The position numbers and the translations under genes are program-made. From NCBI GenBank assembly GCA_965222155.1, contig CBDCTH010000012.1, positions 1,952,001-2,016,000 of the forward strand: DNA of 64,000 bases, given 5' to 3'. Source of the DNA: Gammaproteobacteria bacterium (lineage in GTDB: Bacteria; Pseudomonadota; Gammaproteobacteria; Eutrophobiales; Eutrophobiaceae). The notes below the pieces were generated by a model that was given only the letters and a program-made list of their open reading frames with translations, did not search any database and was not told the origin of the DNA. This document shows, in pieces, positions 12,527 to 60,616 of this stretch; position 1 is the stretch's first letter; every line of letters begins with the position of its first letter.

Positions 12527-12601
12527 GACTGCCTATATTAAAACACTCAGCCCGACAAATCCATCATTCACCCTGCATATGCTGTGTTGTCTGCCGGAAG
12601 A

Positions 12602-12725: not shown

Positions 12726-12744
12726 GGCGGGCAGGTAACACCGC

Positions 12745-14123: not shown

Positions 14124-14434
14124 CCCGGATTTCTCACTAGGCCGCTAGATGCCGCCGGAGATTTGTTTGCTGTCAATGAGTTTAAATACATTCTTCACTA
14201 TGTCGCCATTACAGGCTACGCTTGATGCGCCCTCGCTTGTCTTTTTGCCGCCAGCGGGCACGTGTTCATTGCGCCCATCCCTGGGCGCAACCCTGCGGGC
14301 GGCTGTCGCCGTGCAAATTGTCTATCCTGACAATTTGTCCCTCAACCAGAGCTACAGCTATGGTTTCGGTCGCAGGCACCCGCTGGCGGCAAAAATCCGG
14401 CGCGATCATCGCATCACCTGGTGAGAAATCCGGG
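14124..14434. mobile_element. MITE family B (CCCGGATTTCTCAC...GTGAGAAATCCGGG) with a 73-bp insert at 14265-14337
   Basis: Terminal inverted repeats; homologous copies at 18498, 37971, 39441, 45613 and 60333. Confidence 0.88.
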
Positions 14435-37970: not shown

Positions 37971-38351
37971 CCCGGATTTCTCACCAGGCCGCTTGTTGCT
38001 ATCGGAGACATGTTTTCTGTCAATGAGTGATGGAAACCTTTTCACTATATCGACATTACAGACTGCGCTTGATACGCCATTGCTTGTCTTTTTTGCGCCA
38101 GTGGGCACGTGTTCATTGCGCCCATCCCCCTGCTCAACTCCATACAGAGCTTACCCCTGCGGTTGTAAGCAGGGGGGCAGGCTCTGGGCGCAACCCTGCG
38201 GGCGGCTGTCGCCGTGCAAATCGTCTGTCCTGACGATTTGTCCCTCAACCAGAGCATAAGGGGACGGATTTGAAATCCGTCCCCGGAGAGTTCAGGCGCC
38301 CGCTGGCGCAAAAAATCCAGTGCAATCATCGTATCACCTGAGAAATCCGGG
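37971..38351. mobile_element. MITE family B with TTAA duplication and several nested inserts
   Basis: TTAA-CCCGGATTTCTCA ... TGAGAAATCCGGG-TTAA; inserts at 38112-38240 and 38260-38284. Confidence 0.9.
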
Positions 38352-38484: not shown

Positions 38485-39372
38485 ATGATGGACCCCGATT
38501 GGTTGCCATTTCACCCTGCGCCCAGTTCGCCTGAATTTGTGCTGCCTGATGGGGCGGTCGATGCACACTGTCACGTATTTGGCCCCGCAGCAGAGTTTCC
38601 TTTTGCGCCAGAGAGAAAATACACCCCCTGCGATGCGAGCAAAGGCAATTTATGGCAATTGCGTGATCATCTTGGTTTCTCACGCAATGTGATTGTGCAG
38701 GCCACTTGCCATGGCGCCGACAATCATGCACTGGCGGATGCCCTGCAATCCTCCCACGGCAAGGCTCGAGGTATCGCCACGCTGCGATCGACTGTAACCG
38801 GTGACGAATTGGCACAATTGCATGCAGCCGGCGTACGCGGTGTACGCTTCAATTTTGTACAGCGCCTGGTGGATAGTTTGCCCTTTGGCGAATTGGCCGG
38901 TATTGCAGAGCGAATCGTACCTTTGGGTTGGCACGTCGTCATCTATTTTGAGGCAGCAGACCTGGCAGAGTATTACGATTTCTTCACATCTTTGCCTACC
39001 ACGGTGGTGGTAGATCATATGGGTCGCCCCGATGTCAGCCAACCGGTCAACGGCACAGGGTTTAATCTCTTTATCAAACTGTTGACCGAGAATGAGAATT
39101 TCTGGTCGAAGGTCAGTTGTCCGGAGCGGATTTCAGAAGTTGGTCCGCCAGGATATGAAGATGTCATCCCCTTCGCCCAGCGTGTGATCGACGCTTTTCC
39201 AGACCGTGTGTTATGGGGAACCGACTGGCCTCACCCCAATATGAAGTCTCACATGCCGGACGATGGTAAATTGGTAGACTTGATACCTCATATTGCCCTC
39301 ACAGAAAAACTACAACAAAAACTGCTGGTAGATAACCCCATGCGCCTGTATTGGCCGGAAGAAATCAGCTGA
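38485..39372 (+). CDS. ligI: 2-pyrone-4,6-dicarboxylate hydrolase
   Basis: DAHCHVFGP, RKYTPCDA, VQATCHG, DHMGRPD, WGTDWPHPN. Confidence 0.93.
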   Translation: MMDPDWLPFHPAPSSPEFVLPDGAVDAHCHVFGPAAEFPFAPERKYTPCDASKGNLWQLRDHLGFSRNVIVQATCHGADNHALADALQSSHGKARGIATLRSTVTGDELAQLHAAGVRGVRFNFVQRLVDSLPFGELAGIAERIVPLGWHVVIYFEAADLAEYYDFFTSLPTTVVVDHMGRPDVSQPVNGTGFNLFIKLLTENENFWSKVSCPERISEVGPPGYEDVIPFAQRVIDAFPDRVLWGTDWPHPNMKSHMPDDGKLVDLIPHIALTEKLQQKLLVDNPMRLYWPEEIS

Positions 39373-39630: not shown

Positions 39631-40899
39631 TTACGCTGTACTGTGCTTGTGAATCTCCTCTGAGACTTCCCTGAGGTACTCCAGGAACAATTCAGCCGCA
39701 GGCGAGGGTTGGGTATGGGCTCGTAGTGTCAGACCGATGGGTCGATAAGTGTCCTCCAGTACGACCGGCAAAACATCCAGTATGCCGAACTGCATGTCAT
39801 AATAAATCTGGTGTTCCGACAACAAGGCTACCCGGTCACTGTCCAACAGGAGGCCTCTCACCATGGATAGAGAACTGGTCTCCACTGCATGTTCCGGTAC
39901 GAGCATTTCATGACGCGACAGCGTCTCATCGAACAATTGCCGGCTGGGGCTTCCCCTTGCGGGTAACACCCATTGCGCGTCCTGCATGTCCTTAAAGTTG
40001 ATTCTTGACCTGCCGGCCAGCGGGTGGTCTTTGCGTGCAATCACCGACAGTCGATCTTCAAAAAGTTTTTCGGTAACAATATCAGCACGGTTTTCGACGT
40101 TGCGAATGGCACCCACTATGAAGTCGATATCACCACTTCGTAAGGACGACTCCAGCACATCGTAGGGACCCTCCCGGGTGACCACATCAATCTGGGGATA
40201 TTTTTCCAGCAACCTGTTGATGGCAACAGGTGTCAGATAGGTTCGAGTATAAGGCAGTGTTCCGATGACAACACGTCCCTGAGTCACTCCATCCAGGCTG
40301 GCGATATCGTCGATGGCTTGATGGATTTGTGAAAATGCCAGTTTGGTGTGTCGAGCGAGAATCGTGGCCAGTCCGGTCGGTGTTACCCCATTGGGTTCGC
40401 TCCGGAAAAGAGGTAATTCCAGCAACTCCTCCAGATATCGCATGGAGTTATATACTGCTGTTTTGCTTATCCCCAGGGTCTGCGCAGCGGCAGTGACGTT
40501 ACGCTTCTCATAAAGTGCTACAAAGGCTGCCAACCGCTTGTAACTGATATCCAATGAGAAAACCGGTATTGAGTGGTAGTGTCGTCCGCCGGGTTTGAAT
40601 TCCTGATATGATTTGCCGGCCTTGTCAAATTCATCTACCACCAGCCTTACCCTGCGAGCCAGGGCAACGCCATATACAGTGGGCATCATGCCCGTTGCGG
40701 CTCGGTCAAACAGCCGTGTACCCAGGGTTAATTCCAGTTCGCTGATTGCTTTAGTGATGGTGGTCTGGGAACGATTCAGCTTGTTGGCAGCGCGAGTCAC
40801 ATTTTTATATTCTGCTACGTACAGGGCAGATTTAAGATGGCGCAGACTGACTCCCGGAATGCGGAAATTATCGTTACTCACTCTGTTTCGACATGACAT
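39631..40899 (-). CDS. LysR-family regulator with two tandem HTH domains (GalR/LigR-like)
   Basis: Two HTH segments (NVTRAANKLNRSQTTITKAI; NVTAAAQTLGISKTAVYNSM) plus substrate-binding domain; divergent from ligU. Confidence 0.9.
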   Translation of the reverse strand: MSCRNRVSNDNFRIPGVSLRHLKSALYVAEYKNVTRAANKLNRSQTTITKAISELELTLGTRLFDRAATGMMPTVYGVALARRVRLVVDEFDKAGKSYQEFKPGGRHYHSIPVFSLDISYKRLAAFVALYEKRNVTAAAQTLGISKTAVYNSMRYLEELLELPLFRSEPNGVTPTGLATILARHTKLAFSQIHQAIDDIASLDGVTQGRVVIGTLPYTRTYLTPVAINRLLEKYPQIDVVTREGPYDVLESSLRSGDIDFIVGAIRNVENRADIVTEKLFEDRLSVIARKDHPLAGRSRINFKDMQDAQWVLPARGSPSRQLFDETLSRHEMLVPEHAVETSSLSMVRGLLLDSDRVALLSEHQIYYDMQFGILDVLPVVLEDTYRPIGLTLRAHTQPSPAAELFLEYLREVSEEIHKHSTA

Positions 40900-41135: not shown

Positions 41136-42224
41136 GTGAAACAGTTAGCGATACCGTATATGCAGATGCGCGGGGGGAGTTCGAAAGGTTTGTATTTCCT
41201 TTCTGAAGATTTACCCACGGACCCGGCACAGCGTAACGAAGTACTGCTTGATGCTATGGGTCGAGGTGAGCGTCAGATAGACGGTCTGGGCGGCGCCGAT
41301 CCCCTGACCAGCAAGGTGGCGATTGTTAGCCGTTCTTCCCGGCCGGACGCAGATATCGACTTCTTATTCGTACAAATAGTGGTAGGTCAGGACAAAGTCG
41401 ATACTATACCAAACTGTGGAAACATACTGGCGGGCGTTGGGCCCTTTGCCATAGAGACTGGCCTGGTGCCGGCAGATGAACAGACAACCCGACTTACTGT
41501 GCATATGGTCAACAGCGGAATATTGAGCGAGTTGGAACTGTCTACTCCCGGCGGCAAAACGGAGTACGAGGGCGAGGCTCAAATTGATGGCGTGCCAGGC
41601 AGTGCGGCGCCAGTGCTTTGCTCCTATAAGGATTTGTCCGGCTCAATCTGTGGTGAGCTCCTGCCCACCGGCCGGGTACTGGACGTTGTAGATGATGTGG
41701 AAATGACCTGCGTTGACAATGGCATGCCTGTAGTGGTTTTGCGGGCAAAAGATTTCGGCATCAGTGGCTATGAGTCACCGCTTGAACTGAACGCGAATGA
41801 GAATTTAAAGGCGAGACTGGAGTCGATTCGACTTCAAATTGGCCCCGATATGAACCTGGATGACGTGAAAAACAAGACCATTCCGAAGATGTGCCTTGTA
41901 TCGCCGGCTGTAAATGGAGGACTGGTCAACACACGAACGTTCATTCCTCATAAATGTCATGCGGCTGTCGGGGTGTTGGGGGCGGTGTCGGCAGCTAGCG
42001 CTTGCATATTACCTGGATCGGTCGTAGAGGGAATGGTCGAACGGCCGGGAGGCGAAGTCAAAACTATATCAGTGGAACACCCCATTGGAGAGTTTTCTGT
42101 AACTCTGCAAGTGGATGAATCCGGTGAATTTCCGCTAATCAAAAAAGCGGGTTTGCTGCGCACTGCGCGCCTGCTGAGCAGGGGTGTATTGTATGTTCCC
42201 GCCAGAGGGGAAAGTAAGTTATGA
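41136..42224 (+). CDS. ligU: 4-oxalomesaconate tautomerase/isomerase (LigU/GalD/FldA, PrpF family)
   Basis: [45 protein letters not shown]. Confidence 0.9.
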
Positions 42225-42919
42225 GGACGGTAGCAGTTCGAAACATTGAACGAGCAGATGCAGCGGTCGTGGAGGTACTGGGAACTTTGGGCGTTGCCAC
42301 GGTACATGAAGCGCTGGGACGGGTGGGGCTGTTAAAACCCTATATGCGACCGATATACCGACACGCCCGGATCGCAGGCAGTGCCATTACGATTTTGGCC
42401 CAGCCTGGTGATAACTGGATGTTACATGTGGCCATCGAACTTTGCCAACCCGGGGATGTCCTCGTGGTAGCTTGCACCACGGACAATACCGACGGAATGT
42501 TTGGTGATTTATTGGCCACTTCGGCCCGGGTTCGGGGTGTAAAAGGCCTTGTGGTAGATGCCGGCGTACGCGATGTGGCAATACTGGAAGATATGAGTTT
42601 CCCCGTTTGGTGCAAAGCGGTATCCGCTCAGGGTACGGTTAAAAACACGCCTGGTTCGGTAAACGTACCCATTGTCTGTGCCGGCCAGACAGTCAATCCC
42701 GGTGATGTAGTAGTTGCTGATGATGACGGTGTAGTAGTGATTCCGAGACACCGGGCCGAAGCTGCTATGGCTGCTGCCCGGACTCGGGAACAAAATGAGG
42801 CGAGCAAGCGTGAAAAACTGGCAAACGGCATTTTAGGTCTGGATATGTATGACATGCGCCCTCGCCTGGAAAAAGCGGGCCTGATTTACCTGGATTCACT
42901 GGAAGATTTAAAAGACTGA
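42221..42919 (+). CDS. ligK: 4-carboxy-4-hydroxy-2-oxoadipate aldolase
   Basis: [40 protein letters not shown]. Confidence 0.93.
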
Positions 42920-42921
42920 TC

Positions 42922-43968
42922 ATGATTATTGATTGCCACGGGCACTACACCACGGCACCGGGTGCGCTGGGCGAATACCGTGAGCGACAAAAAGCGGAAC
43001 TGACTGATGAACCAAACTTTCAACATGAAAAAGGTATCATTGATATCAGCGATGAGCAGTTGCGGGAGAGTCTTGAAGGAGCACAATTAAAACTGCAACG
43101 GGAACGCGGTACCGATCTCACTATATTTTCACCGCGCGCCAGCTGGATGGGGCATCATATCGGCAATGAGAGCACCAGTAAATTCTGGTCTGAGCACTGT
43201 AATGAGTTAATCTACCGCATCACACAGCTATATCCGGATAACTTCGCCGGAGGTTGCCAGTTGCCCCAGACACCGGGGGCAGAACTACGTAATGCCGTCC
43301 TGGAACTGGAGCGTTGTGTGCTTGAGTTCGGTTTTGTCGGGTTTAACCTGAATCCGGACCCATCGGGCGGCCACTGGGACTCCCCTCCCCTGGGAGATCG
43401 CTATTGGTATCCTGTCTACGAAAAAATGTGCGAACTGGATGTCCCCGCCATGATCCATGTGAGTGGGGCTTGTAATCATGCCTTTCAAACCACCGGTTCC
43501 TATTACCTGAGTGCCGACACTACTGCCTTCATGCAGTTGATGACATCGACTGTGTGCCAGGATTTTCCGGATATCAGGTTCATAATCCCCCATGGTGGCG
43601 GTGCAGTGCCTTATCACTGGGGGCGTTTCCGCGGTCTGGCTGACATGATGAAGCTGCCTCCCCTCGATGAATTGTTGTTGAACAATGTCTACTTTGACAC
43701 CTGTGTTTATCACCAGCCCGGGATTGATTTGTTAGTGGATGTGATCCCCTCCAAAAATATTTTGTTTGCATCAGAAATGATAGGTGCAGTACGCGGCATA
43801 GACCCCGAAACCGGCCATTATTTCGATGATACCAAACGTTACATCGATAACAACAATGCACTCAGCAAAGACGAAAAAAAGGCCATTTTTGAGGGCAATG
43901 CCCGTAGGGTATTTACCCGATTGAACAAATCAAATTCGAATACGGCACGCATCGTGAAGGCAGGATAA
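42922..43968 (+). CDS. ligJ: 4-oxalomesaconate hydratase
   Basis: MIIDCHGHYTTAP, FSPRAS, IPHGGGAVPYHWGR, FASEMIGAVRG. Confidence 0.95.
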   Translation: MIIDCHGHYTTAPGALGEYRERQKAELTDEPNFQHEKGIIDISDEQLRESLEGAQLKLQRERGTDLTIFSPRASWMGHHIGNESTSKFWSEHCNELIYRITQLYPDNFAGGCQLPQTPGAELRNAVLELERCVLEFGFVGFNLNPDPSGGHWDSPPLGDRYWYPVYEKMCELDVPAMIHVSGACNHAFQTTGSYYLSADTTAFMQLMTSTVCQDFPDIRFIIPHGGGAVPYHWGRFRGLADMMKLPPLDELLLNNVYFDTCVYHQPGIDLLVDVIPSKNILFASEMIGAVRGIDPETGHYFDDTKRYIDNNNALSKDEKKAIFEGNARRVFTRLNKSNSNTARIVKAG

Positions 43969-44023: not shown

Positions 44024-44054
44024 ATCAATATTAAGCTGCTTTTATGTTAGCTTA

Positions 44055-44260
44055 CAGGGCAAACGCATACTTTTGGATTCTGTTGCAGAAGACAGGAAAT
44101 CAACCGGAAAACGCCGCCCGTCATGCTGGCGAATGCCAGCATCCAGTCAAACAACAGCGCATGATCATGGTGATGAAGGGTTATTCACTGGATTCTGGCT
44201 TGCGCCAGAATGACGGAATCGGGTAAAAACGTCTGAATTCAAAAGTATGCGTTTGCCCTG
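44055..44260. mobile_element. MITE with 26-bp TIR and perfect 10-bp target duplication
   Basis: TGTTAGCTTA-CAGGGCAAACGCATACTTTTGGATTC ... GAATTCAAAAGTATGCGTTTGCCCTG-TGTTAGCTTA; contains a GTCAT-type palindrome pair at 44118-44216. Confidence 0.92.
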
Positions 44261-44298
44261 TGTTAGCTTAAGTCTACAACCCGCTTTTCAGGAAAATG

Positions 44299-44402: not shown

Positions 44403-45587
44403 ATGCATGTACCAGTCGTGATAGTTGGTGCGGGCCCGTCCGGTTCGCTCTTGGCCTGGATTTTACGCCAGCGCGGGATCGAAAGTATCGTCCTGGAAAG
44501 GAAAAGCCGTGAATACGTCGAAAGTCGCATTCGTGCCGGTGTCATGGAGCAAAACGCTGTAGACTTGATGATTAAAGCAGGTGTCGGCGAACGCCTGAAA
44601 AAGGAATGCATGTATCACCCAGGTGTGGTCATCGGCCTTCACAATGAGCATCATTTTCTCGATTTCGATAGGCTGATAGGGGTTGGTGTCACCATATACG
44701 GCCAGTCGGAGCTTACCAAGGATCTATTGGGCGCACTTGCAGCGGTAGATCACAAGGTTTTCTATGAGGCGCCCGCCACGGCAATCGAAGGCATTGAGGG
44801 TGATTCCCCGACGGTGAAGTACACTCACGAGGGCGTGGATAAGGAAATAAGCTGCGATTTCGTTGTCGGGGCCGATGGTTTTCATGGTCCCTCACGTTCG
44901 TCGATCCCGGCCGGCGTCCTCAAGACTTACGAAAACGTTTATCCCTACGGTTGGCTCGGTGTGATGGTCAAAGCGCCGCCGTCGAAAGATGTAGCAATGT
45001 TTTCGCATCATGAACGTGGCTTTGCACTGTTGAGCATGCGTTCACCGAAAATTTCGCGGCTCTATCTCCAGTGCGCGCCGGATGAAGATATCAACGAATG
45101 GCCCGATGAGCGGGTCTGGGAAGAACTCGATACGCGCCTGGGTGCACCCGGTTGGGAGCTTGAGCGAGGGGAGATCTTTCAGAAGGATGTGACCCCACTG
45201 CGGAGTTTTTTCTCCCAACCCATGTCCCATGGTCGTCTGTTTCTGTGCGGTGATGCCGCGCACATCGTCCCGCCGACCGGCGCCAAGGGCCTTAACGCGG
45301 CATTTGCCGATGTGAGCGTTCTGTCCGCCGGATTGATCGAATACTTTACAAAAGACAACGCTACGATTTTAGATCGTTATGCCCACGTTGCCCTGGCCCG
45401 CAACCTCCAGTGTCAGCGTTTTTCCTCGGGCAACACGGCCAAGTATCATATCCACCCCGACAGCAATTCCTTCGAACGCCGTATGCAAGTGGCGGAGTTG
45501 GAATATCTGGTGTCTGACGAGACGACCCAGATATCCTATGCCAGGCAACATACCGGGCTTCCGTTCGATTACTGGCCGGAACTCTGA
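44403..45587 (+). CDS. pobA: 4-hydroxybenzoate 3-hydroxylase-like flavin monooxygenase with divergent active site
   Basis: GAGPSG, RIRAGV, YGQSE, GADGFHG, GDAAHIVPPTGAKGLN; family is clear, substrate is not. Confidence 0.8.
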   Translation: MHVPVVIVGAGPSGSLLAWILRQRGIESIVLERKSREYVESRIRAGVMEQNAVDLMIKAGVGERLKKECMYHPGVVIGLHNEHHFLDFDRLIGVGVTIYGQSELTKDLLGALAAVDHKVFYEAPATAIEGIEGDSPTVKYTHEGVDKEISCDFVVGADGFHGPSRSSIPAGVLKTYENVYPYGWLGVMVKAPPSKDVAMFSHHERGFALLSMRSPKISRLYLQCAPDEDINEWPDERVWEELDTRLGAPGWELERGEIFQKDVTPLRSFFSQPMSHGRLFLCGDAAHIVPPTGAKGLNAAFADVSVLSAGLIEYFTKDNATILDRYAHVALARNLQCQRFSSGNTAKYHIHPDSNSFERRMQVAELEYLVSDETTQISYARQHTGLPFDYWPEL

Positions 45588-45612
45588 ATGCGAACCCCTT
45601 CCCGGACACTGA

Positions 45613-45848
45613 CCCGGATTTCTCACCAGGCCGCTTGTTGCTATTGAATACTTTGCTAACAATAAATTACGGTAATATGTCCATTATATCAACAGAACAG
45701 GCTGCGCTTGATGCGCCCTTGCTTGTCTTTTTTACGCCTACGGGCACATGCTCCCTCAACCAGAGCTATGGCTATGCTTTCGGTCGCAGGCACCCGTAGG
45801 CGTAAAAAATCCGGCGCAATCATCGCATCACCCGGTGAGAAATCCGGG
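45613..45848. mobile_element. MITE family B (no insert)
   Basis: CCCGGATTTCTCACC ... GGTGAGAAATCCGGG. Confidence 0.9.
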
Positions 45849-45933
45849 TTGATCACCTGTGCCGATATGCGAGTTTTGCACAGTCTGACGGGGTCCGCGT
45901 CCCTTCAACTTTTCAGGAATAAGGAAGAGAAAC

Positions 45934-46302
45934 ATGAGTAGAGAAACTGGTCACAGTGATAATATTCCAGGCACATGTGTGTTCACCGGGCAAAGGTCGC
46001 AGAAGGGGCTAAAGCTGAATAGCTTTGCCTATTCTCTTCACAAAGCCGGGAACCGGGAGGTCTATCGTCAGGATCCGGCGGGCTACATGGATAGCTACGG
46101 TCTTTCAGCCTGGGAGAAACAAAAGGTTAAAGAGAAGGACTGGAAGGCCCTGATCGAAGAAGGCGGCGGCAACATCTATATGCTGTTGAAAGTCGGCGCT
46201 ATTACCGGTGATGGTCTTGTCCCCATCGGTGCGCAGCAGCGAGGCGAATCGGTGGAAGATTTCATGAAGTCCCGCAACGTGCCATTGCGGCAAAATATGT
46301 AG
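45934..46302 (+). CDS. ligA: Protocatechuate/gallate 4,5-dioxygenase alpha subunit
   Basis: IPGTCVF..KGLKLN.F..L, GGNIYMLLK; directly before ligB. Confidence 0.85.
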   Translation: MSRETGHSDNIPGTCVFTGQRSQKGLKLNSFAYSLHKAGNREVYRQDPAGYMDSYGLSAWEKQKVKEKDWKALIEEGGGNIYMLLKVGAITGDGLVPIGAQQRGESVEDFMKSRNVPLRQNM

Positions 46303-46329: not shown

Positions 46330-47187
46330 ATGGGTAGACTAGTTGCCGGTATCGGTTCGTCTCACGTTCCTTCGATTGGCGTGGCTTTCGATCAAAACCA
46401 GCAGGAGGCTCCTGGGTGGAAGCCCCTGTTTGATGGTTATAGGCCTGCTAAAGCCTGGTTAAAGGATGTCGGTATAACTCACGCCGTCGTTCTGTACAAC
46501 GATCATGGCACCGATTTTTTTTTCGATAAGTATCCGACATTCGCGATGGGTGTTGCCGATGAATACCCTATCGGTGATGAAGGTTGGGGCGTACGTCCGC
46601 TGCCGGCGGTAAAGGGTGATAGTGTTTTTTCCTGGCACCTGGCTAACTCTCTGGTGAAAGAGAGTGAATTCGATCTTACCATTTGTCAGGACATGGTGAT
46701 GGACCACGGCATCCTGGTACCATTGCCGTTATTGTTTGATCATAAGCCTGACTGGAGTGTCAAGACTGTGCCTATGCAGGTCAATGTGCTGCAGCATCCG
46801 TTACCGACACCGCACCGGTTATGGAAACTTGGACAAGCACTGCGAACAGCCGTTGAGTCCTATCCCGATGATGTGCGTGTTGTTGTTGTTGGCACTGGTG
46901 GACTTTCTCACCAGTTGCATGGCGATCGTTTCGGTCATATGAACTCGGACTGGGACAAGGAATTTCTTGACCGGATCGAAGATGATCCGGAAAGCCTCGT
47001 CGATATCTCTCATGATGAATTGATGGAACGTGGTGGGGCGGAAGCGGTGGAGATGATGGTGTGGCTTGGGATGCGTGGCGCCTTAACCCCGAAGGTCAAC
47101 AAGATCCACCGGAATTACTACCTGCCGATGTTATCAGGGATGGGATTGACCGTTCTGGAGGATACGCTGACAGGCGATGCAACCTGA
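46330..47187 (+). CDS. ligB: Protocatechuate/gallate 4,5-dioxygenase beta subunit
   Basis: SHVPSIG, YNDHG, DEGWG, DHG, GTGGLSHQL, GAEAVE..W. Confidence 0.92.
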   Translation: MGRLVAGIGSSHVPSIGVAFDQNQQEAPGWKPLFDGYRPAKAWLKDVGITHAVVLYNDHGTDFFFDKYPTFAMGVADEYPIGDEGWGVRPLPAVKGDSVFSWHLANSLVKESEFDLTICQDMVMDHGILVPLPLLFDHKPDWSVKTVPMQVNVLQHPLPTPHRLWKLGQALRTAVESYPDDVRVVVVGTGGLSHQLHGDRFGHMNSDWDKEFLDRIEDDPESLVDISHDELMERGGAEAVEMMVWLGMRGALTPKVNKIHRNYYLPMLSGMGLTVLEDTLTGDAT

Positions 47188-47205
47188 ATCCGGAAATGCG
47201 GAAAT

Positions 47206-47305
47206 GGGGTCAGGTCGCACAATGCACACTTGAGGCTCACCCTTTCAACGTTCGGTCCACTGTACTGTCACTTCAGCTATAGTGTGCATTGTGCGACCTG
47301 ACCCC
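47206..47305. mobile_element. Family C mini-element (100 bp)
   Basis: Same ends; identical to 47709-47808. Confidence 0.9.
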
Positions 47306-47698
47306 GCATCCGTTACCGACACCGCACCGTTATGGAAACTTGGACAAGCATTGCGAACAGCCGTAGAGTCCTATCCCGAAGAGGTGCGTGTCGTTGTTGT
47401 GGGCACCGGCGGGCTTTCTCACCAGCTGCATGGCGATCGTTTCGGCCATATGAACGCGGACTGGGACAAGGAATTTCTTGACCGGATCGAAGATGATCCG
47501 GAAAGCCTTGTCGACATCTCTCATGATGAATTGATGGAACGTGGTGGTGCGGAAGCGGTGGAGATGATGGTGTGGCTTGGGATGCGTGGCGCCTTAACCC
47601 CGAAGGTCAACAAGATCCACCGGAATTACTACCTGCCGATGTTATCAGGGATGGGATTGACCGTTCTGGAAGATACGCTGACAGGCGATGCAACCTGA
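47306..47698 (+). pseudogene. Duplicated 3' half of ligB (divergent allele)
   Basis: Aligns to 46794-47187 with a 1-nt deletion and ~16 substitutions. Confidence 0.9.
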
Positions 47699-47708
47699 AT
47701 CCGGAAAT

Positions 47709-47808
47709 GGGGTCAGGTCGCACAATGCACACTTGAGGCTCACCCTTTCAACGTTCGGTCCACTGTACTGTCACTTCAGCTATAGTGTGCATTGTGCGAC
47801 CTGACCCC
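47709..47808. mobile_element. Family C mini-element (100 bp)
   Basis: Identical to 47206-47305. Confidence 0.9.
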
Positions 47809-47833
47809 GCATACACGCATACAGGGGAATTAC

Positions 47834-48895
47834 ATGACCACAGAGAAAACAAATGGTAGGTTTATCAAAGAAGAGACCTGGCGTCACTTTTGGCATCCTG
47901 TCTGTACACTGGAGGAATTGTATTCAGCGGACCCCTCCGGTAATGGTCCGCTCCAGGTGCAGTTACTGGGTGAGGCCCTGGTTATAGCAAAACTGGACGG
48001 GAGTATTTCCGCGTTCGCCGATCGATGTGCGCATCGTTCAACATCCTTGTCCAGGGGATTCATAGATGATGGCAGAATACGCTGCCGTTATCATGGCTGG
48101 GCCTATGACAGTAGCGGAAAATGTGTCGACATTCCTGCGTGCCGGGATTTAAAAATACCCGGTCGTGCGAAGATTCAAAAATTTGATGCTGAAGTAAAAT
48201 ACGACCTCGTATGGGTTAGTCTTGAAGCCCATGCAGCCACAGAAATCCCTCCCTGTCCCGGATTTGATGATGAAGTGTTTAAGGCAGTTATCGGCAAACC
48301 CTATACCTGGGCAACCTCCGCGGCAAGGCGGTTGGAAAATTTTGTCGATTTGGCTCATTTCCCCTATGTTCATCCAAATACACTGTTTGATCCAAACATG
48401 ACAGATGTATCACCCCCATCAATCGATCGTAATAATGGTCAATTGATCTTTCATTTCAACCCTCAAACTGATGATATGCCCATCCCGGATGTGTCTTTAA
48501 TGGGAAAAACGGATTATCAGATTACTATGCCGTTTACTGTCAACCTGGAATTTGAACTCATCAGCAAAGCCGGGAAAGGTAATCGGGCCATATTATGGAT
48601 GAGTGCATCACCCCTTGACGAGGGTCATTGCCGCAGTTTCTGGTTTACCTGTCGTGATCACAACAAAGATGAACCCGATTATCCTCATCTTGCATTTCAG
48701 GAACGTGTACTGGAAGAAGATATTGTGGTGATCGAAGCACAGAATCCGCCCCAGATTCCTTATGGCATCGATGAAATTTCAGTGCCGACTGATATGGTAT
48801 CCATCCAGTACCGGAGGTGGCTACGTGAAATCGAACAAGCTGTTGATAACGATAGCTTATTGAAAAATCTTACTACCAATGAAAGATGCGCATAG
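47834..48895 (+). CDS. Rieske non-heme iron oxygenase, NdmA/NdmB-like demethylase family
   Basis: Rieske CAH...CRYH; iron site ENFVDLAHFPYVH...ED; start MTTEK (ATG 47834) with GGGG RBS. Confidence 0.88.
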   Translation: MTTEKTNGRFIKEETWRHFWHPVCTLEELYSADPSGNGPLQVQLLGEALVIAKLDGSISAFADRCAHRSTSLSRGFIDDGRIRCRYHGWAYDSSGKCVDIPACRDLKIPGRAKIQKFDAEVKYDLVWVSLEAHAATEIPPCPGFDDEVFKAVIGKPYTWATSAARRLENFVDLAHFPYVHPNTLFDPNMTDVSPPSIDRNNGQLIFHFNPQTDDMPIPDVSLMGKTDYQITMPFTVNLEFELISKAGKGNRAILWMSASPLDEGHCRSFWFTCRDHNKDEPDYPHLAFQERVLEEDIVVIEAQNPPQIPYGIDEISVPTDMVSIQYRRWLREIEQAVDNDSLLKNLTTNERCA

Positions 48896-48923: not shown

Positions 48924-50198
48924 TCAGAAATTGCAGCTCAGGCCCAGTTCGATGAAGCTGTCGCGGCGCGCATAGTAGTGGATATCCTCCCTGTCGATGC
49001 CGAGCAGGACAACCGCCTCCAGGTACAGCGACCAGCGGTCTGAGAGACGCCGGTCCAATCCGACAGCCAGAGAATGGGTAGCCCGTCCCAGGTCCCCGAT
49101 AAAACTTGCCGTCATTTCGGTGCTCTGAATATCATTGAACGCCAGGCGCGCGGCCGTGAAGAGTTCGTTTTCGAACGTGCCGGGCGAACGGCTCGGCGGC
49201 GCATCCCGGTCCCGGTCATCATAGTGCCATTCACCGAACAGGGTGAGGTCGGCAACAGTATTTAATATGGAATAGAGCGTGTATTCGCCACCAATGACGG
49301 ATGCCACGTAATCCTCTTCCCTGCCCAGCAGGTTCAGGGCGCCGGACCGTTGAATCGCCTCCAGCTTGAACAACCAGGGACCAAGGGTCAACTGGGCGTC
49401 CAGACCGAACTGGCGTATCTGGGTATAATATTGAACCAGATTCAGCTCGCCGCCGGGCGTGAAGTCCAATTGCGCGGCCGGCTCCCGGCTGGTGCCGTCG
49501 AACACGCTCAGCCCCATATCCAGGGGACCGAAACTGTTACTGTAGCGCGCGGCAAAATCCAGGTGCCACTCTTCGTCCGCGCTCTCATAGCGGATGTTGT
49601 CGTCGTCTATGACGAGCGGCAGGCGCAGACGGCCGCGCCGGCCCGAGAAGGTCCGGGCGCGATGATAGGGCAACCCGAACAATTCCAACACGCCCCAATC
49701 ACCCGATAAGGTAGCGTGAGCCATGGGTTGGCCCAGCTTGGCCATTCCGTCCGGATGTTCAACAAAATCGACCTGGTTGATGATATCGACCAGACGTTGC
49801 GATTCAACTACACCCCAGAACACCTGGTCCACACCCAGCCGCAGTTCCCATTCATTATCACCGATCCCGCCGAACAGCAGGAGGTAGGCTTCACGCAGGT
49901 CCACGTGGGTACGGCGCGGGTCCGCGGCATCGTAACGAAAAAAAGGCGCCAGGGTGAAGCTTCTGCCCTCGACGTCCTCAATGTAGAACTCCGGCTCAAG
50001 AACGAAGCCGCTTGCGTGGGAACGCTGGCCGGGATACAGGGCGGACTCCGGATACCAGCGACCATCGATGCCTATGCGGCCGGAAAATTCGTAATCGGCA
50101 ATTTCAACCCCCACGCTTGTTCCAGCAGCAACGATTGAAATCAAAAGCCAGACAACCCCGAAAACCGCACAGTAAAGGGCGCCACCGCGCGGCATCAA
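48924..50198 (-). CDS. Putative outer-membrane beta-barrel protein of the MMPL module
   Basis: Signal peptide, amphipathic beta pattern, DLREAY and FWGVVE motifs, terminal Phe. Confidence 0.7.
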   Translation of the reverse strand: MMPRGGALYCAVFGVVWLLISIVAAGTSVGVEIADYEFSGRIGIDGRWYPESALYPGQRSHASGFVLEPEFYIEDVEGRSFTLAPFFRYDAADPRRTHVDLREAYLLLFGGIGDNEWELRLGVDQVFWGVVESQRLVDIINQVDFVEHPDGMAKLGQPMAHATLSGDWGVLELFGLPYHRARTFSGRRGRLRLPLVIDDDNIRYESADEEWHLDFAARYSNSFGPLDMGLSVFDGTSREPAAQLDFTPGGELNLVQYYTQIRQFGLDAQLTLGPWLFKLEAIQRSGALNLLGREEDYVASVIGGEYTLYSILNTVADLTLFGEWHYDDRDRDAPPSRSPGTFENELFTAARLAFNDIQSTEMTASFIGDLGRATHSLAVGLDRRLSDRWSLYLEAVVLLGIDREDIHYYARRDSFIELGLSCNF

Positions 50199-51010
50199 CG
50201 CACCCGCTTCAAACCGGTTTGCGTGAAGTCTCGGTCATCCAGGTCGGTGCGGAACTGATATTCCGTCCAGGTCAGGTCAGTACTCTTCCCGGTGAGATGA
50301 TTGATCATGGTCATCTCGCCGGCATACCAGTAATTATCCAGGTACTGCTCGTAGTTGGCTAAAGTCAGCGTTTTCAAGTGCGCATCCTTGCGGTCGTAGT
50401 ACTCGACTTTCCAGGTGCGCAATTCGTCACGGTCGCGCCAGACCAGTTGGCGGCTGTAACCCGATTTCTTGTCAGTCGGGACGCGTTCGGAAACCGTGCA
50501 GGTCAACTCGCCGCATGGTTTGTCGTCCAGGTAACGGTAAGTATATTTCTCCACCTCCTGGGCGCCCATGTCTTCATAGGAAAATTCACTACCCATGAAA
50601 GATCCGGAACGATTCGACGAACTGATGCGTTTGACCCGTTTCAGGGCGGGCAAATAAAGCCATTGATCGTCCGCTTCCACCTTGTGAGAATGGATAAGAA
50701 AAGCAGTCCCTTCTACGTCGCGTGGTTCATCGAACACAAACAGACTCTTGTCACCGTCGTCCTCCACCTCAAGTACCTTTACCCTGATAGAACGCCGGCT
50801 TTCCTGTCCCTGTTTGTTACGCAATATCATGGTCTGGCGCGCCGTGAAATTGCCGAAACCCTTTGCTTGTCCAGCGGCTGCTTGCGCAATTTTCAACCCG
50901 ATTTCTTCGGCGCTTGCATTATCAGCTATTGCGCCCGGCAACGTACCCAGACACACCAGCACGGTAACGAACAATGAAAATACAGGCCGGATGAAACATG
51001 CGTACATCAT
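50195..51010 (-). CDS. Outer-membrane lipoprotein-sorting (LolA-like) protein
   Basis: DVEGTAFL, DDQWLYLPALKRVKRI, FMGSEFSYED; start 51010 (AGGAGA RBS) or 51061. Confidence 0.85.
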   Translation of the reverse strand: MMYACFIRPVFSLFVTVLVCLGTLPGAIADNASAEEIGLKIAQAAAGQAKGFGNFTARQTMILRNKQGQESRRSIRVKVLEVEDDGDKSLFVFDEPRDVEGTAFLIHSHKVEADDQWLYLPALKRVKRISSSNRSGSFMGSEFSYEDMGAQEVEKYTYRYLDDKPCGELTCTVSERVPTDKKSGYSRQLVWRDRDELRTWKVEYYDRKDAHLKTLTLANYEQYLDNYWYAGEMTMINHLTGKSTDLTWTEYQFRTDLDDRDFTQTGLKRVR

Positions 51011-51057
51011 GTTTCTCCTGTCGATGACTGTCAGCAGGGCAATAGTGTATGTACGTA

Positions 51058-53337
51058 TCATAATTTCTTCCTGTCGATAGCTAACAACAGCGGCGGGAGA
51101 AGCAGGAAATCGGCGAGGACCGCAAACATAATCGTGCTCGTTACCAGGAGGCCGAGTGACCAACTGACCTCGAATCCCGATAAGGCGAATACCAGGAAGC
51201 CTGCCGCCAATACCAGGGTGGTGGTCCATAGTGCTTGTCCCACGGTGCAAAAGGTATAGCGCACGGCTTCCGGCGCCGGGAGACCCTCGCGCCGGGCTTT
51301 CAAATATTTGCTCAGGAAATGAGTAGTGTCGTCCACAATAATGCCGAACGCGATTGCGGTCGTTACGGAACCGGCAAGACCTACCTGGCCGACCAGATAG
51401 CCCCACAGGCCGAAGCTCATGGCCGCGGGAACGAAGTTGGGCACAAGACTGATGAGACCGAGGCGCACGCTTTTGAAAACCCAGATAAAAATGAACGAAA
51501 TAAGACCCATGGCGATAATCGTGGCGCGCAACATGCTATTGATGTTGCGTTGGGAAAGGTGAGCAAAGGTCATGCTGACGCCCGTTGCCGGGGCCGCCAG
51601 GTCGGGGGCATTAGCCTGGAGCCAGGCCAGTGCGCGCGCATCGAGTTCGCGCTGTTGCTTGGACGTCAGGCTACGCAGCACGACGGTCATACGCGTTGCG
51701 GATTTGGCGATATCAATACGGTCATTGAGATCTTTGCCGAACGGCAGCGAAAACTCGTAAAGCAACAGGTATTGCGCGGCAAGCTCCGGGTCGGCGGGTA
51801 TTCGGTAGAAGGCCGGATCCTCGCCGTGCATGTTCTTGTTCAGGCGTTTCATGATGTCCGGAAAAGCTCTGACGTGGGTCACTTCGGGCTGGCCCCGATA
51901 CCATTCGGCGAATGTATTGACCGTGCGCAGGTAATCGGGATCGGTGATGCCGCCTTCACTCCCCGCCTCAAGCGAATACTCCAGCGTTTCCATGCCGGTC
52001 AGGTTTTCAAGGACGAAGTCCGTAGCGCGTCGGAACTCGTAACGCTCGTCGAAATACTGCGTCCAATTGTCGGTCAACTCATTGCGGGGAATGCCCGAGA
52101 TCAGAGCAACTGTCAGAAGGGCGAAGAACCAGAGCAGGAATTTGCTGCGTGCGACGACAAAGGCGCCGAACCGGTCGAAGAATCCAGGCCGATCAGTGCG
52201 GACGGGACGGGCGCGCAAGGGCAGGATCGAAAGCAACGCCGGCAAGAGCGTCATGGAATAGACAAAGGCGCATAGCACGCCAAACGCCACCATATTGCCC
52301 AGAACGTGAAAAGGCGGCGAATCCGAGGCATTCAAGGTGAGGAACCCGCCCGCGGTCGTGACCGACGTGAGAAAAACCGGCCAGGCATTGCTGCGCAGCG
52401 ATTCGATAATCGCCTCATTTCTACTCAAACCCCGGTTCACACCCGCCAAAGTGGCCGTGATGATGTGGATGGAATCCGCCACGGCAATCGTCATGATGAT
52501 GATCGGCACGCCGGAATTGGCTGGATTGAACACCGTGCCGGTCCAACCGGCAAACCCCATGGCCGTGTTGACGGTGAACACAACCACGATAACGGTGACC
52601 AGGGTGCCGAATACGGATCGCAGAAGAACGCCGGTCAACACCGCGATGACAAGGAATACGAGTGGTACGAGTTTTTCCAAATCGTCCTTTGTGACGTCGG
52701 CGAAGGCGCGATTCATGACAACGTCGCCGGTGAGGTAATAAGCGATGTCCGCATGGCTCGAGCGGGCCTGGTCCAGGAGCGCGTTGAGATAATCGGTTAT
52801 TTCAACCACAGCAGCATCCGGGTTTTCGGGCAGAACGAAATTGATCGCCATCCCGGCCACGCGTCCGTCATGGGCGACCAGGCGCCCGGCAATAGCGACC
52901 GCGTTCAGTGCGATCTCTTCGACTCTCTTCAGGTCGGCGTCACTCAACGACTGCGCGTCACCGACGAGCGGTTCGACAATCAAATCGTCGCCGAACGCCT
53001 CGCTATGGGAATAATTGGTAAGAGAGTCGACGCGATTGGAATAAGGCGTACGCCACGCGGCTTCGGTCAACTCCTCCAGTGCGCCAAGCGTCTCCCGGGT
53101 GAACACTGAGCCCTCCCGGGGAGCGAGGGCAATCAGCGCCGTATGGGACACGGAGTAGGTGTTCTCCAGGTCGTCGAAAGCCGCTAGTTGCGGATTGTCT
53201 TCGTCGAACAGGCTGCGGTAATCGTTGGTGACGCCGATGAAGCGGGCGCCCCCGGCCACAAATGTTGCGACCGCAACGACCAGCCACCGGCGACGCAGAA
53301 TGACGGCGATACAGCGGTCCAATAATACAGGACTCAT
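51058..53337 (-). CDS. MMPL/RND-family transporter
   Basis: Two-repeat multi-TM topology; IAVADSIH, TSVTT, GIIVDDTTH motifs. Confidence 0.9.
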   Translation of the reverse strand: MSPVLLDRCIAVILRRRWLVVAVATFVAGGARFIGVTNDYRSLFDEDNPQLAAFDDLENTYSVSHTALIALAPREGSVFTRETLGALEELTEAAWRTPYSNRVDSLTNYSHSEAFGDDLIVEPLVGDAQSLSDADLKRVEEIALNAVAIAGRLVAHDGRVAGMAINFVLPENPDAAVVEITDYLNALLDQARSSHADIAYYLTGDVVMNRAFADVTKDDLEKLVPLVFLVIAVLTGVLLRSVFGTLVTVIVVVFTVNTAMGFAGWTGTVFNPANSGVPIIIMTIAVADSIHIITATLAGVNRGLSRNEAIIESLRSNAWPVFLTSVTTAGGFLTLNASDSPPFHVLGNMVAFGVLCAFVYSMTLLPALLSILPLRARPVRTDRPGFFDRFGAFVVARSKFLLWFFALLTVALISGIPRNELTDNWTQYFDERYEFRRATDFVLENLTGMETLEYSLEAGSEGGITDPDYLRTVNTFAEWYRGQPEVTHVRAFPDIMKRLNKNMHGEDPAFYRIPADPELAAQYLLLYEFSLPFGKDLNDRIDIAKSATRMTVVLRSLTSKQQRELDARALAWLQANAPDLAAPATGVSMTFAHLSQRNINSMLRATIIAMGLISFIFIWVFKSVRLGLISLVPNFVPAAMSFGLWGYLVGQVGLAGSVTTAIAFGIIVDDTTHFLSKYLKARREGLPAPEAVRYTFCTVGQALWTTTLVLAAGFLVFALSGFEVSWSLGLLVTSTIMFAVLADFLLLPPLLLAIDRKKL

Positions 53338-53431
53338 CGCCTCAACTATTACTGGCTGGAAGCGGTAGCGAACTCATACGACACGCATGCACGGCGTTAT
53401 CGATACTGCCAACTGCAGGTGGCTTCGTTCC

Positions 53432-54658
53432 CTACCACTCGATTGATTTTGTCGTATGGGCGTGGTTGGGCATCCTGTAACTCAGCCCACCCTCGTCATA
53501 CACCGAAATTTGGAGAAGCTGGGTAAAATTTCCTGCCCTGATCAACGGTGTGCCCTTCAGCAATCGCTTAATACGTTCTTTCGTCCGGAAAGCAAACAAT
53601 GTACCTATGGTAGGGTACTTTGGAAACTGGAACCCGTCAGCGAGCCGGTTTCCTATAAGCGCGCGTGAGAGACGGTAAGCCAAAGCCAGCAACTTTTCCC
53701 TTTCAACCGGATCTGCTATACCCGCAACTGACGGAATGGCCTGGATCAGCGTGTTCGCCACGGCTATCGAATCGGCGTCTGCCGGCGGCTCGCACACGTA
53801 GCCGACCTTGTAAATATTATCCGCCTCTGCGGTGTTGCTATAGAGGATGGTGTCAGGGATCCCCATGAGATAGCCGGCGTAGCGCCAGATACTCATAACA
53901 CTCTCTCGTTCTTCTTTGTTGAAATTCGCTCCCATCAATTTCGAGTAATCCAACAAGCGCTTGGAAAAGACGGAGATGGCATAACCCAGGTGTGCTGTGC
54001 TTACCGGCACGCCCCAGGCTTCGTGATTCCAATCATCGGAGTTAGCCAGCAGGGTCCTTATTCGACTATGAACGAAGCGAATGCGCGTGGATAACTTCCA
54101 GCCGTCACCGTCTCTTTGCAGGCCACCGGGAAAAAATATTTCCAACATATGGCGATTATTCTGCTGGAGACGTCTTTTGGTCGCCGCCACGCGTCCGGTA
54201 ATTTTGAAAGACTTGGCGATACGCGTCGAAAAACCTTCCACCAGCACCCCGGTAACGAATGCGACCAACATGAGGTCTACGTTTGGGTGGAAGGCGCGAA
54301 TGCCCGGCTCGAAGGCGCTGTGGTTGAGCCAGGGAGGCTGCTCTTCAAGATTTTTGAAAAAATCGCGTAAGACCTGCGGCGCCTTGCGCACAACCCCATC
54401 ATCATGTTGCTCTATGGCGGCCCCGATGAACCGGTGCAGGTCGTTCGGAGGCATTGAGGAGAGTTCCTGCATTACCGGGTCCAACTCAGGGTCGCCAATC
54501 AAGGTATGTTTGATGTAGTTGTCGGCAAGCGCCTGGTCGAGGCGGCGGGCTTGCTGGTAGCTCTCGACGTAATCTGATGGAATTATTGTGTCATCTTCCC
54601 CCCCCCCCCCCCCAATCAACTTAATGGAACCTCTAATAATAGACATTTTTCGATACAC
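53432..54658 (-). CDS. MpaB/Lcp-like (DUF2236-type) oxygenase family protein
   Basis: GDPELD, PPWL, RRLQQN, RIRFVHSRIR, WGVPVS, WRYAGYLMGI; N-terminus uncertain (G16 tract and MITE). Confidence 0.75.
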   Translation of the reverse strand: MYRKMSIIRGSIKLIGGGGGEDDTIIPSDYVESYQQARRLDQALADNYIKHTLIGDPELDPVMQELSSMPPNDLHRFIGAAIEQHDDGVVRKAPQVLRDFFKNLEEQPPWLNHSAFEPGIRAFHPNVDLMLVAFVTGVLVEGFSTRIAKSFKITGRVAATKRRLQQNNRHMLEIFFPGGLQRDGDGWKLSTRIRFVHSRIRTLLANSDDWNHEAWGVPVSTAHLGYAISVFSKRLLDYSKLMGANFNKEERESVMSIWRYAGYLMGIPDTILYSNTAEADNIYKVGYVCEPPADADSIAVANTLIQAIPSVAGIADPVEREKLLALAYRLSRALIGNRLADGFQFPKYPTIGTLFAFRTKERIKRLLKGTPLIRAGNFTQLLQISVYDEGGLSYRMPNHAHTTKSIEW

Positions 54659-60270: not shown

Positions 60271-60616
60271 CAGGTCTGGGCAGGCCTTTCAAGACTATCA
60301 TCCGCATGGACAGCGGATGGTAAGCGTACCAGCCCGCATTTCTCACCAGTTGATGCGATGATCGCACCAGATTTTTGCCGCCAGCGGGTGCCTGCGACCG
60401 AAAGCATAGCCGTAGCTACGATTGAGGGAGCACGTGCCCGCTGGCGGCAAAAAGACAAGCGAGGGCGCATCAAGCGCAGTCTGTTATGTCGATATAGTGA
60501 GCAGGTCGTCATAACGTAACAACAGCAAACAACTATCCGATGACGACAAGCGAACTGGTGAGAAATGCGGGCTAGGACGTATTCACAGCGTGTCTTGAAA
60601 GGCCTGTTCAGACCTG
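60271..60616. mobile_element. Outer MITE-like element with a family B MITE (60333-60571) nested inside
   Basis: Outer arms CAGGTCTGGGCAGGCCTTTCAAGAC / GTCTTGAAAGGCCTGTTCAGACCTG; inner CCCGCATTTCTCACCAG / CTGGTGAGAAATGCGGG. Confidence 0.8.

Follow-up and report, generated by a model that had tools for sequence, protein, structure and literature searches.

The Hydroxylase Gene and Its Family Assignment

The stretch of DNA analyzed here (hereafter the window) comprises 64,000 nucleotides of contig CBDCTH010000012.1 (assembly GCA_965222155.1; positions 1,952,001 to 2,016,000 of the forward strand) from a member of the Gammaproteobacteria, and carries at 44403–45587 (+) a gene for a PobA-family FAD monooxygenase that stands in a cluster of aromatic ring-cleavage genes and belongs to a clade marked by Ala199, Phe201 and His385 (hereafter the A/F/H clade). 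PobA is a textbook flavoprotein hydroxylase, and the relay through Tyr201 and Tyr385 is the textbook account of how its substrate is activated. The open reading frame (ORF) starts with ATG downstream of an AGGAG-type ribosome-binding site, encodes 394 aa, and coincides exactly with the coordinates given in an earlier note made from the sequence alone, which had described its product as a PobA homolog lacking both of these tyrosines. Residues are numbered throughout as in Pseudomonas p-hydroxybenzoate hydroxylase (PHBH), unless designated as query numbering.

A phmmer search against all PDB chains aligned the protein end to end with p-hydroxybenzoate hydroxylases (E 1e-105 to 2e-112), and the HMMER alignment to solved PHBH chains runs from about residue 3 to 389 of the query (2–389 in the PDB phmmer search) on residues 3–391 of the chain, with two gaps of one residue each. 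The best match is XaPobA (8jqq/8jqo: 379/376 bits; 45–46% identity), the next matches scoring 364 and 357 bits, with 42–45% identity to the next-best PHBH structures. Among family models, the protein passes NF006091, the looser NCBIfam subfamily model (494.7 bits, cut-off 351), and fails TIGR02360, the NCBIfam equivalog of true PobA (450.8 bits, cut-off 538.7). The earlier note had proposed a comparison with PHBH on a structure model as a check; the AlphaFold2 model obtained from a 62-sequence alignment (pLDDT 96.2) adopts the PHBH fold, with TM-scores of 0.97 on XaPobA and 0.95–0.97 on the Pseudomonas PHBH entries. Group A monooxygenases of the PobA fold are recognized by this fold, by the FAD-binding GxGxxG and GDAAH...P motifs and by a length of about 390 aa, and the window protein is by these marks a full-length PobA-family FAD monooxygenase.

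A Rebuilt Active Site

In the formal HMMER alignment, residues A198, M199 and F200 of the query fall on L199, I200 and Y201 of Pseudomonas PHBH, and query H383 falls on Y385. The substitutions L199A, Y201F and Y385H, which had been read by eye in the earlier note, are thus recovered, and neither tyrosine is restored; the codons lie at 44994–44996 (A199), 45000–45002 (F201) and 45549–45551 (H385). The alignment likewise bears out the retention of S212, R214, Y222, H72, P293 and T294, to which L210 and T347 can be added as residues kept as in PaPobA; V75 and M200 are also present. The window protein resembles, in other words, a PaPobA carrying L199A, Y201F and Y385H. Judged by what distinguishes a true PobA, the Ser212/Arg214/Tyr222 carboxylate-binding set is intact, and the Tyr201–Tyr385(–His72) relay is broken at both tyrosines (F201, H385), with H72 in place. 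In PaPobA, these tyrosines deprotonate the 4-OH of the substrate and drive the movement of the flavin (PMC10770758). A new tyrosine, Y381 (query Y379, codon 45537–45539), is specific to the A/F/H clade and invariant in it; it stands one helix turn ahead of H385 and may serve as the substitute partner in a His-based relay.

The loss of both tyrosines has a natural counterpart in the clade F PobAs of the Burkholderiales, which are natural protocatechuate 5-hydroxylases without Tyr201 and Tyr385 (Katsuki et al., 2023; PMC10770758). The clade F pocket is formed by M72, I75, V/I199, W201, M210 and F385, and is tuned by C347 (PMC10770758); the window protein shares none of these seven residues, having H72, V75, A199, F201, L210, H385 and T347 in their place. 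The complex of XaPobA with protocatechuate has residues 72, 75, 199 and 201 enclosing the 3-OH of the substrate, and the V199A substitution in XaPobA abolishes activity on protocatechuate (PMC10770758). By analogy with this complex, the presence of Ala instead of Val or Leu at position 199, and of Phe instead of Trp or Tyr at position 201, would enlarge the pocket around the position of the substrate's 3-substituent, and the roomier pocket floor would suit a substituent bulkier than a hydroxyl group.

Conservation and Carriers of the A/F/H Clade

When 5.8 billion clustered proteins were searched for homologs, about 100 clusters matched at 59–97% identity, after which identity fell sharply to 53% or less. 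Among the 97 full-length clade sequences (the query and 96 of P0001–P0097, the 347-aa P0091 being left out), A199 and F201 are each present in 97 and H385 in 96, the sole sequence without it (P0093) being truncated at its C-terminus. The next tier (P0102–P0120, minus the fragments P0111 and P0117) carries L199/Y201/Y385 in all of its 17 full-length proteins, and about 15 further positions, such as E198V, L381Y, M346N and L350Y, tell the clade from this tier. The division is also seen at the DNA level in fetched genomes, where one scan of GTDB species genomes yielded 45 loci (designated by L numbers below), 15 with the A/F/H signature and 30 with (L or I)/Y/Y. In a FastTree phylogeny of 119 sequences of 375–420 aa, assembled without XaPobA and PaPobA and sampling one cluster in four from the clade, the A/F/H sequences are monophyletic (support 1.0, stem 0.35) and their sisters carry V199/Y201/Y385. 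No sequence of the W201 type seen in clade F was found among the 270 proteins retrieved by representative and word-indexed searches.

Since the substitutions are fixed across the clade while its nearest outsiders keep L/Y/Y, the pattern of conservation excludes chance or decay as their source and indicates that they have been fixed by selection. And because none of the seven clade F residues is shared, the A/F/H clade is, as judged by its signature, a second, independent clade of tyrosine-less PobAs outside clade F. Its named members belong to Amphritea, Tropicibacter, Shimia, Ruegeria arenilitoris, Leisingera and Magnetovibrio, and it further includes metagenome-assembled genomes of the Rhodospirillaceae, Rhizobiaceae and Hyphomicrobiales, as well as one Tara-labelled sequence. 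Wherever a source names a member, the annotation is "4-hydroxybenzoate 3-monooxygenase". No plasmid-borne member was detected in the 72,556 plasmids of PLSDB, in which all 291 matches lie below 60% identity.

The Gene Cluster in the Window

The hydroxylase gene is preceded on the same strand by four genes of the lower pathway, which encode LigI, the 2-pyrone-4,6-dicarboxylate (PDC) hydrolase (38485–39372 (+); LigI 4d8l, 346 bits, E 1e-102), a 4-oxalomesaconate tautomerase of the LigU/GalD type and PrpF family (41136–42224 (+); NF033377, 499.6 bits, cut-off 440), the 4-carboxy-4-hydroxy-2-oxoadipate (CHA) aldolase LigK/GalC (42221–42919 (+); TIGR02798, 368 bits, cut-off 304.5) and LigJ, the 4-oxalomesaconate hydratase (42922–43968 (+); 6dxq, 501 bits). 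Downstream of it lie genes for both subunits, alpha and beta, of a class III extradiol dioxygenase, a LigA-like protein (ligA', 45934–46302 (+)) and a LigB-like catalytic protein (ligB', 46330–47187 (+)), and then a gene for a Rieske non-heme-iron monooxygenase of the demethylase type, with Rieske and VanA_C domains (47792–48895 (+)), beside which no reductase partner gene is found. A PcaQ-like regulator of the LysR family is encoded at 39631–40899 (-); its domain begins near residue 117, and the true start of the gene is probably later than that of the ORF. At the border of the cluster, a TonB-dependent outer-membrane receptor (35261–37927 (-), identified by domain scan) is a possible uptake component, and adjoins the cluster in L001, L002, L004, L006, L007 and L008 as well.

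By the standard of the protocatechuate 4,5-cleavage (lig/pmd) pathway, the window supplies LigAB, LigI, LigU, LigJ and LigK, and no LigC, the 4-carboxy-2-hydroxymuconate semialdehyde (CHMS) dehydrogenase. No GFO_IDH_MocA domain of the LigC type was detected with Pfam or NCBIfam in 51 of the 52 window ORFs that encode 110 aa or more (all except 12372–12761), and none in 67 ORFs of L007, L010, L012, L015, L016, L017 and L019. Nor was an esterase of the MgaC/DesC type seen in the cluster.

The dioxygenase differs from DesB/GalA, a fused LigB-LigA polypeptide with Glu377, in being encoded by two genes, and it scores below the cut-off of the NF009904 equivalog (343.5, cut-off 412). The gallate specificity of DesB stems from Glu377', which binds OH-5 of gallate (PMC3962378). 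The LigA-like subunit of the window has Leu at the column of DesB Glu377, and Leu or Ile is found there in 14 of 14 loci.

A tandem duplication of about 510 nt at 95–100% identity affects the catalytic gene in the window, the stretch 46794–47309, which comprises the 3' half of ligB' and the adjoining spacer, being repeated at 47306–47812. Repeat comparison identifies the ORF at 47282–47698 (+) as a 138-aa C-terminal LigB fragment made by this duplication, which is not present in L001–L008 and could be real or an artifact of assembly.

Conservation of the Gene Context

The context of the 45 loci was surveyed by tblastn with the proteins neighboring the hydroxylase in the window (E ≤1e-8, at least half of the query covered). 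Of the 15 clade loci, 14 have LigA-like and LigB-like genes immediately downstream in the same orientation, and none of the 30 canonical PobA loci has them; the clade locus without them, L009, ends inside the hydroxylase gene. The window itself presents the arrangement of a bhb-type module, in which a PobA homolog adjoins co-oriented genes for a dioxygenase's alpha and beta subunits. The ligI gene is found in 10 of the 15 clade loci, as against 0 of the 30 controls. The Rieske gene accompanies the triad formed by the hydroxylase, ligA' and ligB' in all eight gammaproteobacterial loci (L001–L008), including the rearranged L007. The flanks of the triad in the alphaproteobacterial loci hold TRAP transporters, joined in one locus or another by ligI, ligK and a gene for a PrpF-type tautomerase. 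The Shimia locus has an aldehyde dehydrogenase gene and a short-chain dehydrogenase/reductase gene just upstream, and the product of the latter scores above the cut-off of the coniferyl-alcohol dehydrogenase subfamily; the TRAP binding protein of this locus returned only generically named matches in the PDB.

Regulators and additional enzymes vary among the loci. In L012, a gene for an IclR-family regulator of the PcaR/PcaU/PobR type lies between the hydroxylase gene and ligA' (11249–12064 (-)), and an equivalent regulator is presumably encoded in L015 (about 7.4–8.4 kb). A 329-aa ORF on the plus strand of the same interval in L012 and L015 is probably no gene, as it has no Pfam match and low atlas recognition, the minus-strand IclR gene being the real one in L012. 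In two Roseobacter-group loci (L016, 7932–8717; L017, 1115–2029), which are without ligJ, a double SnoaL-like protein of the NTF2 fold is encoded between ligI and the hydroxylase gene and could act as an alternative hydratase or isomerase.

A Proposed Leaving-Group Route to PDC

The analysis establishes the protein's fold and its conserved residue pattern, together with the linkage of the genes and the identities of those of the lower pathway; the substrate, the regiochemistry of hydroxylation and the formation of PDC are inferred. The earlier note had suggested that the enzyme still binds a benzoate, although one other than 4-hydroxybenzoate, and the computational evidence supports this suggestion: the carboxylate triad is kept, the substitutions are fixed in the clade, TIGR02360 rejects the protein, the solved structure that matches it best belongs to a natural protocatechuate hydroxylase and the linkage to a LigAB-type dioxygenase is found in this clade only. 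A different and already substituted benzoate would be the probable substrate, because both tyrosines are replaced clade-wide and a ring-cleaving dioxygenase adjoins. With moderate confidence, we propose that the enzyme hydroxylates a 3-substituted 4-hydroxybenzoate at position 5, and that the dioxygenase turns the product into PDC with loss of the substituent. Two considerations lead to this proposal. The pocket appears to be enlarged at the site of the 3-substituent, and the formation of PDC without LigC should require a leaving group at C5 of the cleaved catechol, for which methoxy, halide and, to some extent, hydroxyl groups would qualify. Protocatechuate 4,5-dioxygenase is said to release halide or methanol from 5-substituted protocatechuates, in work attributed to Kersten, Chapman and Dagley in 1985.

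In the proposed mechanism, the NAD(P)H- and FAD-dependent monooxygenase would hold the benzoate by its carboxylate (S212, R214, Y222) as PHBH does, and its rebuilt pocket floor (A199/F201/H385 and the new Y381) would accommodate a 4-hydroxybenzoate with a leaving-group substituent at C3. Hydroxylation would take place at the free ortho carbon, C5, to give a 5-substituted protocatechuate, that is, 3-O-methylgallate or a 5-halo-protocatechuate. The adjacent LigA/LigB-type dioxygenase would then cleave this product at the 4,5 bond, and the ring-opened ester or acyl halide would lactonize to PDC, expelling methanol or halide. LigI, LigU, LigJ and LigK of the cluster would convert PDC onward into pyruvate and oxaloacetate, and the CHMS dehydrogenase LigC would not be required.

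Vanillate would be the first candidate substrate, because it makes use of every gene of the window cluster and is in keeping with the hints at a methyl group and at guaiacyl compounds that two lineages offer. 3-Bromo- or 3-chloro-4-hydroxybenzoate would come second, given the architectural precedent of the Pigmentiphaga kullae H8 operons discussed below and the marine origin of the named members. These rankings agree in part with the example substrates of the earlier note, among which vanillate and protocatechuate stay as leading candidates and an aminobenzoate finds no support in a gene context pointing to a PDC/oxalomesaconate lower pathway. Tentatively, the A/F/H clade may represent the first natural vanillate 5-hydroxylase, converting vanillate to 3-O-methylgallate, the methyl group of which would be shed as methanol during lactonization to PDC.

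Several observations weigh against hydroxylation of a substrate with a methoxy or halide leaving group. The best solved match is, by a small margin, a protocatechuate hydroxylase, so that the 3-substituent may be a hydroxyl group. By bit score, the gallate dioxygenase DesB is a slightly closer relative of the LigB-like subunit (284 bits) than LigB is (258 bits). The closest solved relatives of the Rieske protein are the caffeine/methylxanthine N-demethylases NdmB (308 bits) and NdmA (304 bits), and not vanillate demethylase, and the Rieske gene is missing from the alphaproteobacterial loci. Five clade loci (L007, L009, L012, L015 and L019) are without ligI, a ligC gene could lie elsewhere in the genome, and the 15 clade loci amount to about seven independent lineages, eight of the loci being near-identical relatives of the window organism. 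Lastly, a literature search turned up no bacterial vanillate 5-hydroxylase, which leaves the favored substrate without precedent; no description of the A/F/H clade was found either. The term "vanillate hydroxylase" in literature titles refers to a fungal decarboxylating enzyme, and the XaPobA study did not include vanillate in its set of test compounds (PMC10770758 supplement).

Alternative Substrates

The strongest alternative, which we judge possible if somewhat unlikely, is that of a natural protocatechuate 5-hydroxylase with a clade F-like function and a different pocket. Protocatechuate, possibly derived from vanillate through the neighboring Rieske demethylase, would be converted to gallate, which LigA'/LigB' would cleave to 4-oxalomesaconate for processing by LigU, LigJ and LigK. 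XaPobA, likewise without Y201 and Y385, is the best match of the window protein in both sequence and structure, PaPobA mutants have been described that make gallate from protocatechuate (PMC10770758), PDB entry 6ju1 is a complex of the Y385F variant with protocatechuate, the LigB-like subunit is nearer to DesB, and the missing ligC accords just as well with a route through gallate. The pocket itself speaks against this alternative, since it shares none of the clade F defining and tuning residues and has at position 199 the very alanine that killed the protocatechuate activity of XaPobA (PMC10770758). The dioxygenase, moreover, has no equivalent of the Glu377 that recognizes OH-5 of gallate, and ligI would have little left to do if gallate is opened straight to oxalomesaconate, as Perez et al. 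(PMC8091115) describe for LigAB.

It is distinctly less probable that the enzyme is an ordinary 4-hydroxybenzoate 3-hydroxylase with another proton relay (H385, Y381, H72), feeding a protocatechuate 4,5-cleavage pathway with ligC elsewhere. Such an enzyme would account for the identical fold, for the carboxylate triad, H72, L210, P293/T294 and T347 being as in PaPobA, for the match to NF006091 and the name that databases give to clade members, for the invariant tyrosine one helix turn ahead of H385 and for the LigAB type of the adjoining enzyme. It would have to operate, however, without both tyrosines that deprotonate the 4-OH and move the flavin in PaPobA (PMC10770758), and in spite of the failure against TIGR02360. 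Moreover, it would leave the invariant A199 without a rationale in a pocket for a small substrate. The absence of ligC from the scanned ORFs of the 64 kb and of the scanned clade loci, and a dioxygenase linkage that is clade-specific and found in 0 of the 30 canonical PobA loci, also argue against it.

Finally, another para-substituted benzoate, such as 4-aminobenzoate or 3-methyl- or 3-amino-4-hydroxybenzoate, with the dioxygenase cleaving the resulting aminophenol or catechol, is a most improbable substrate: the loss of the tyrosine relay would matter less if the substrate needs no deprotonation, the closest solved relatives of the Rieske neighbor are N-demethylases and a PHBH complex with 4-hydroxy-3-methylbenzoate exists (8y2s), but LigA/LigB, ligI, ligU, ligJ and ligK make up a PDC/oxalomesaconate route unfit for the cleavage products of aminophenols or methylcatechols, and nothing in the loci points to a deaminase.

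Mobile Elements and Neighboring Genes

An element resembling a miniature inverted-repeat transposable element (MITE), about 240 nt long and bounded by terminal inverted repeats (45611–45850), is inserted in the spacer between the hydroxylase gene and ligA'. Its core, CCGGATTTCTCACC, has 7 matches in the window against 0.03 expected, and further copies of the element lie at 14125–14433 and 60334–60570, with a solo end at 37972–37985. L001, L003 and L008 lack the insertion at this position, and it may interrupt co-transcription of the hydroxylase gene and ligA'. A second inverted-repeat element, of 208 nt (44054–44261), occupies the spacer between ligJ and the hydroxylase gene; its ends are perfectly inverted over at least 17 nt, and it carries GTTAGCTT on both flanks and is the only copy in the window. 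A gene for an IS200/Y1-type transposase-like protein (Pfam Y1_Tnp; 33268–34125 (-)), about 1 kb from the TonB receptor gene that borders the cluster, may be related to these small inverted-repeat elements.

Downstream of the cluster, a block at 48924–54658 (-) encodes an uncharacterized 424-aa protein, a LolA-like/DUF1329 protein, an RND transporter of the HAE3/MMPL type and a protein with an MpaB/Lcp-type oxygenase domain, and may handle hydrophobic substrates; three of its four genes are syntenic in L001, the exception being that of the LolA-like protein. Upstream of the cluster, a cytochrome P450 gene (31572–32780 (+)) follows two cytochrome c genes.

Implications

The fold, the type of chemistry and the operon architecture described here are already known; the novelty lies in the A/F/H clade with its fixed active-site solution, in the mistaken annotation of its members and in the pathway context. 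The clade provides a second natural solution to the loss of the PobA tyrosines (A199/F201/H385 and Y381), its conserved gene context suggests a role for it within a complete pathway, and its systematic annotation as an ordinary 4-hydroxybenzoate 3-monooxygenase is hereby flagged. If vanillate or a halogenated 4-hydroxybenzoate is indeed the substrate, the enzyme would give the PDC pathway a new point of entry, with a bearing on how lignin-derived or brominated aromatics are turned over in the sea and on the biocatalytic production of PDC and gallate derivatives. Should the substrate be vanillate, units of G-lignin, of which it represents the main guaiacyl monomer, would enter the PDC pathway without a demethylase, marine Alphaproteobacteria and Gammaproteobacteria would mineralize vanillate without O-demethylase, tetrahydrofolate, formaldehyde or LigC, and the enzyme would be a ready-made biocatalyst for obtaining PDC or gallate derivatives from G-lignin.

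Comparison with Known Systems

The closest known system is XaPobA of Xylophilus ampelinus (8JQO, 8JQP, 8JQQ), which has the same fold, also lacks Y201 and Y385, keeps S212/R214/Y222 and is likewise a natural PobA paralog with altered specificity. It differs in its signature, no residue of which is found in the window protein, and in its carriers, since clade F has been reported from the Burkholderiales, whereas the named A/F/H members are marine Alphaproteobacteria and Gammaproteobacteria. The physiological role of clade F is called unknown by its authors (PMC10770758), whereas the gene context of the A/F/H clade gives a pathway. Pseudomonas PHBH (PobA, EC 1.14.13.2; 1PBE, 1IUW) aligns with few gaps at 42–44% identity and has the same carboxylate-binding residues, H72, L210, P293/T294 and T347, but it is set apart by L199A/Y201F/Y385H and about 15 clade-specific positions, and the window protein lies below the cut-off of the PobA equivalog. 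The natural changes fall at the positions that have been altered by engineers for protocatechuate hydroxylation, as in the Y201F, Y385F and L199V/Y385F variants of PHBH.

On the dioxygenase side, the likeness to DesB/GalA resides in the LigB-like subunit, of which DesB is the top solved match. DesB, however, is a fused beta-alpha polypeptide that reads OH-5 of gallate through Glu377, whereas here alpha and beta are separate genes in ligA-ligB order, with Leu or Ile at the aligned column. The 3-O-methylgallate routes of sphingomonads proceed through LigAB or DesZ to 4-carboxy-2-hydroxy-6-methoxy-6-oxohexa-2,4-dienoate (CHMOD), PDC and LigI; as shown by Perez et al. (PMC8091115), LigAB converts 3-O-methylgallate to CHMOD, which cyclizes non-enzymatically to PDC. 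Shared with the window are the LigAB-type dioxygenase and the PDC hydrolase, as well as the oxalomesaconate tautomerase, the hydratase and the aldolase; the route of Pseudomonas sp. NGC7 (vanA1B1-mgaAB-mgaC-mgaD) also shares the clustering of a Rieske demethylase with the dioxygenase. The 3-O-methylgallate of sphingomonads and NGC7 arises from O-demethylation of syringate, with no flavoprotein hydroxylase feeding in, and an esterase of the MgaC/DesC type is a further point on which the window cluster differs from them.

The nearest architectural precedent is offered by the bhb operons of Pigmentiphaga kullae H8 (phbh1-pcaA-pcaB(-orf404) and phbh2-pcaB2-pcaA2), which, according to Ke et al. (PMC12016517), encode a PobA homolog together with both subunits of a protocatechuate 4,5-dioxygenase, degrade 3-bromo-4-hydroxybenzoate via 3-bromo-4,5-dihydroxybenzoate, and are induced by 3-bromo-4-hydroxybenzoate and not by 4-hydroxybenzoate. 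The H8 operons have the same architecture as the conserved hydroxylase-ligA'-ligB' triad, a likeness of gene order, and they involve a different PobA clade and host group; in the window, unlike in H8, the triad is joined to ligI, ligU, ligK and ligJ.

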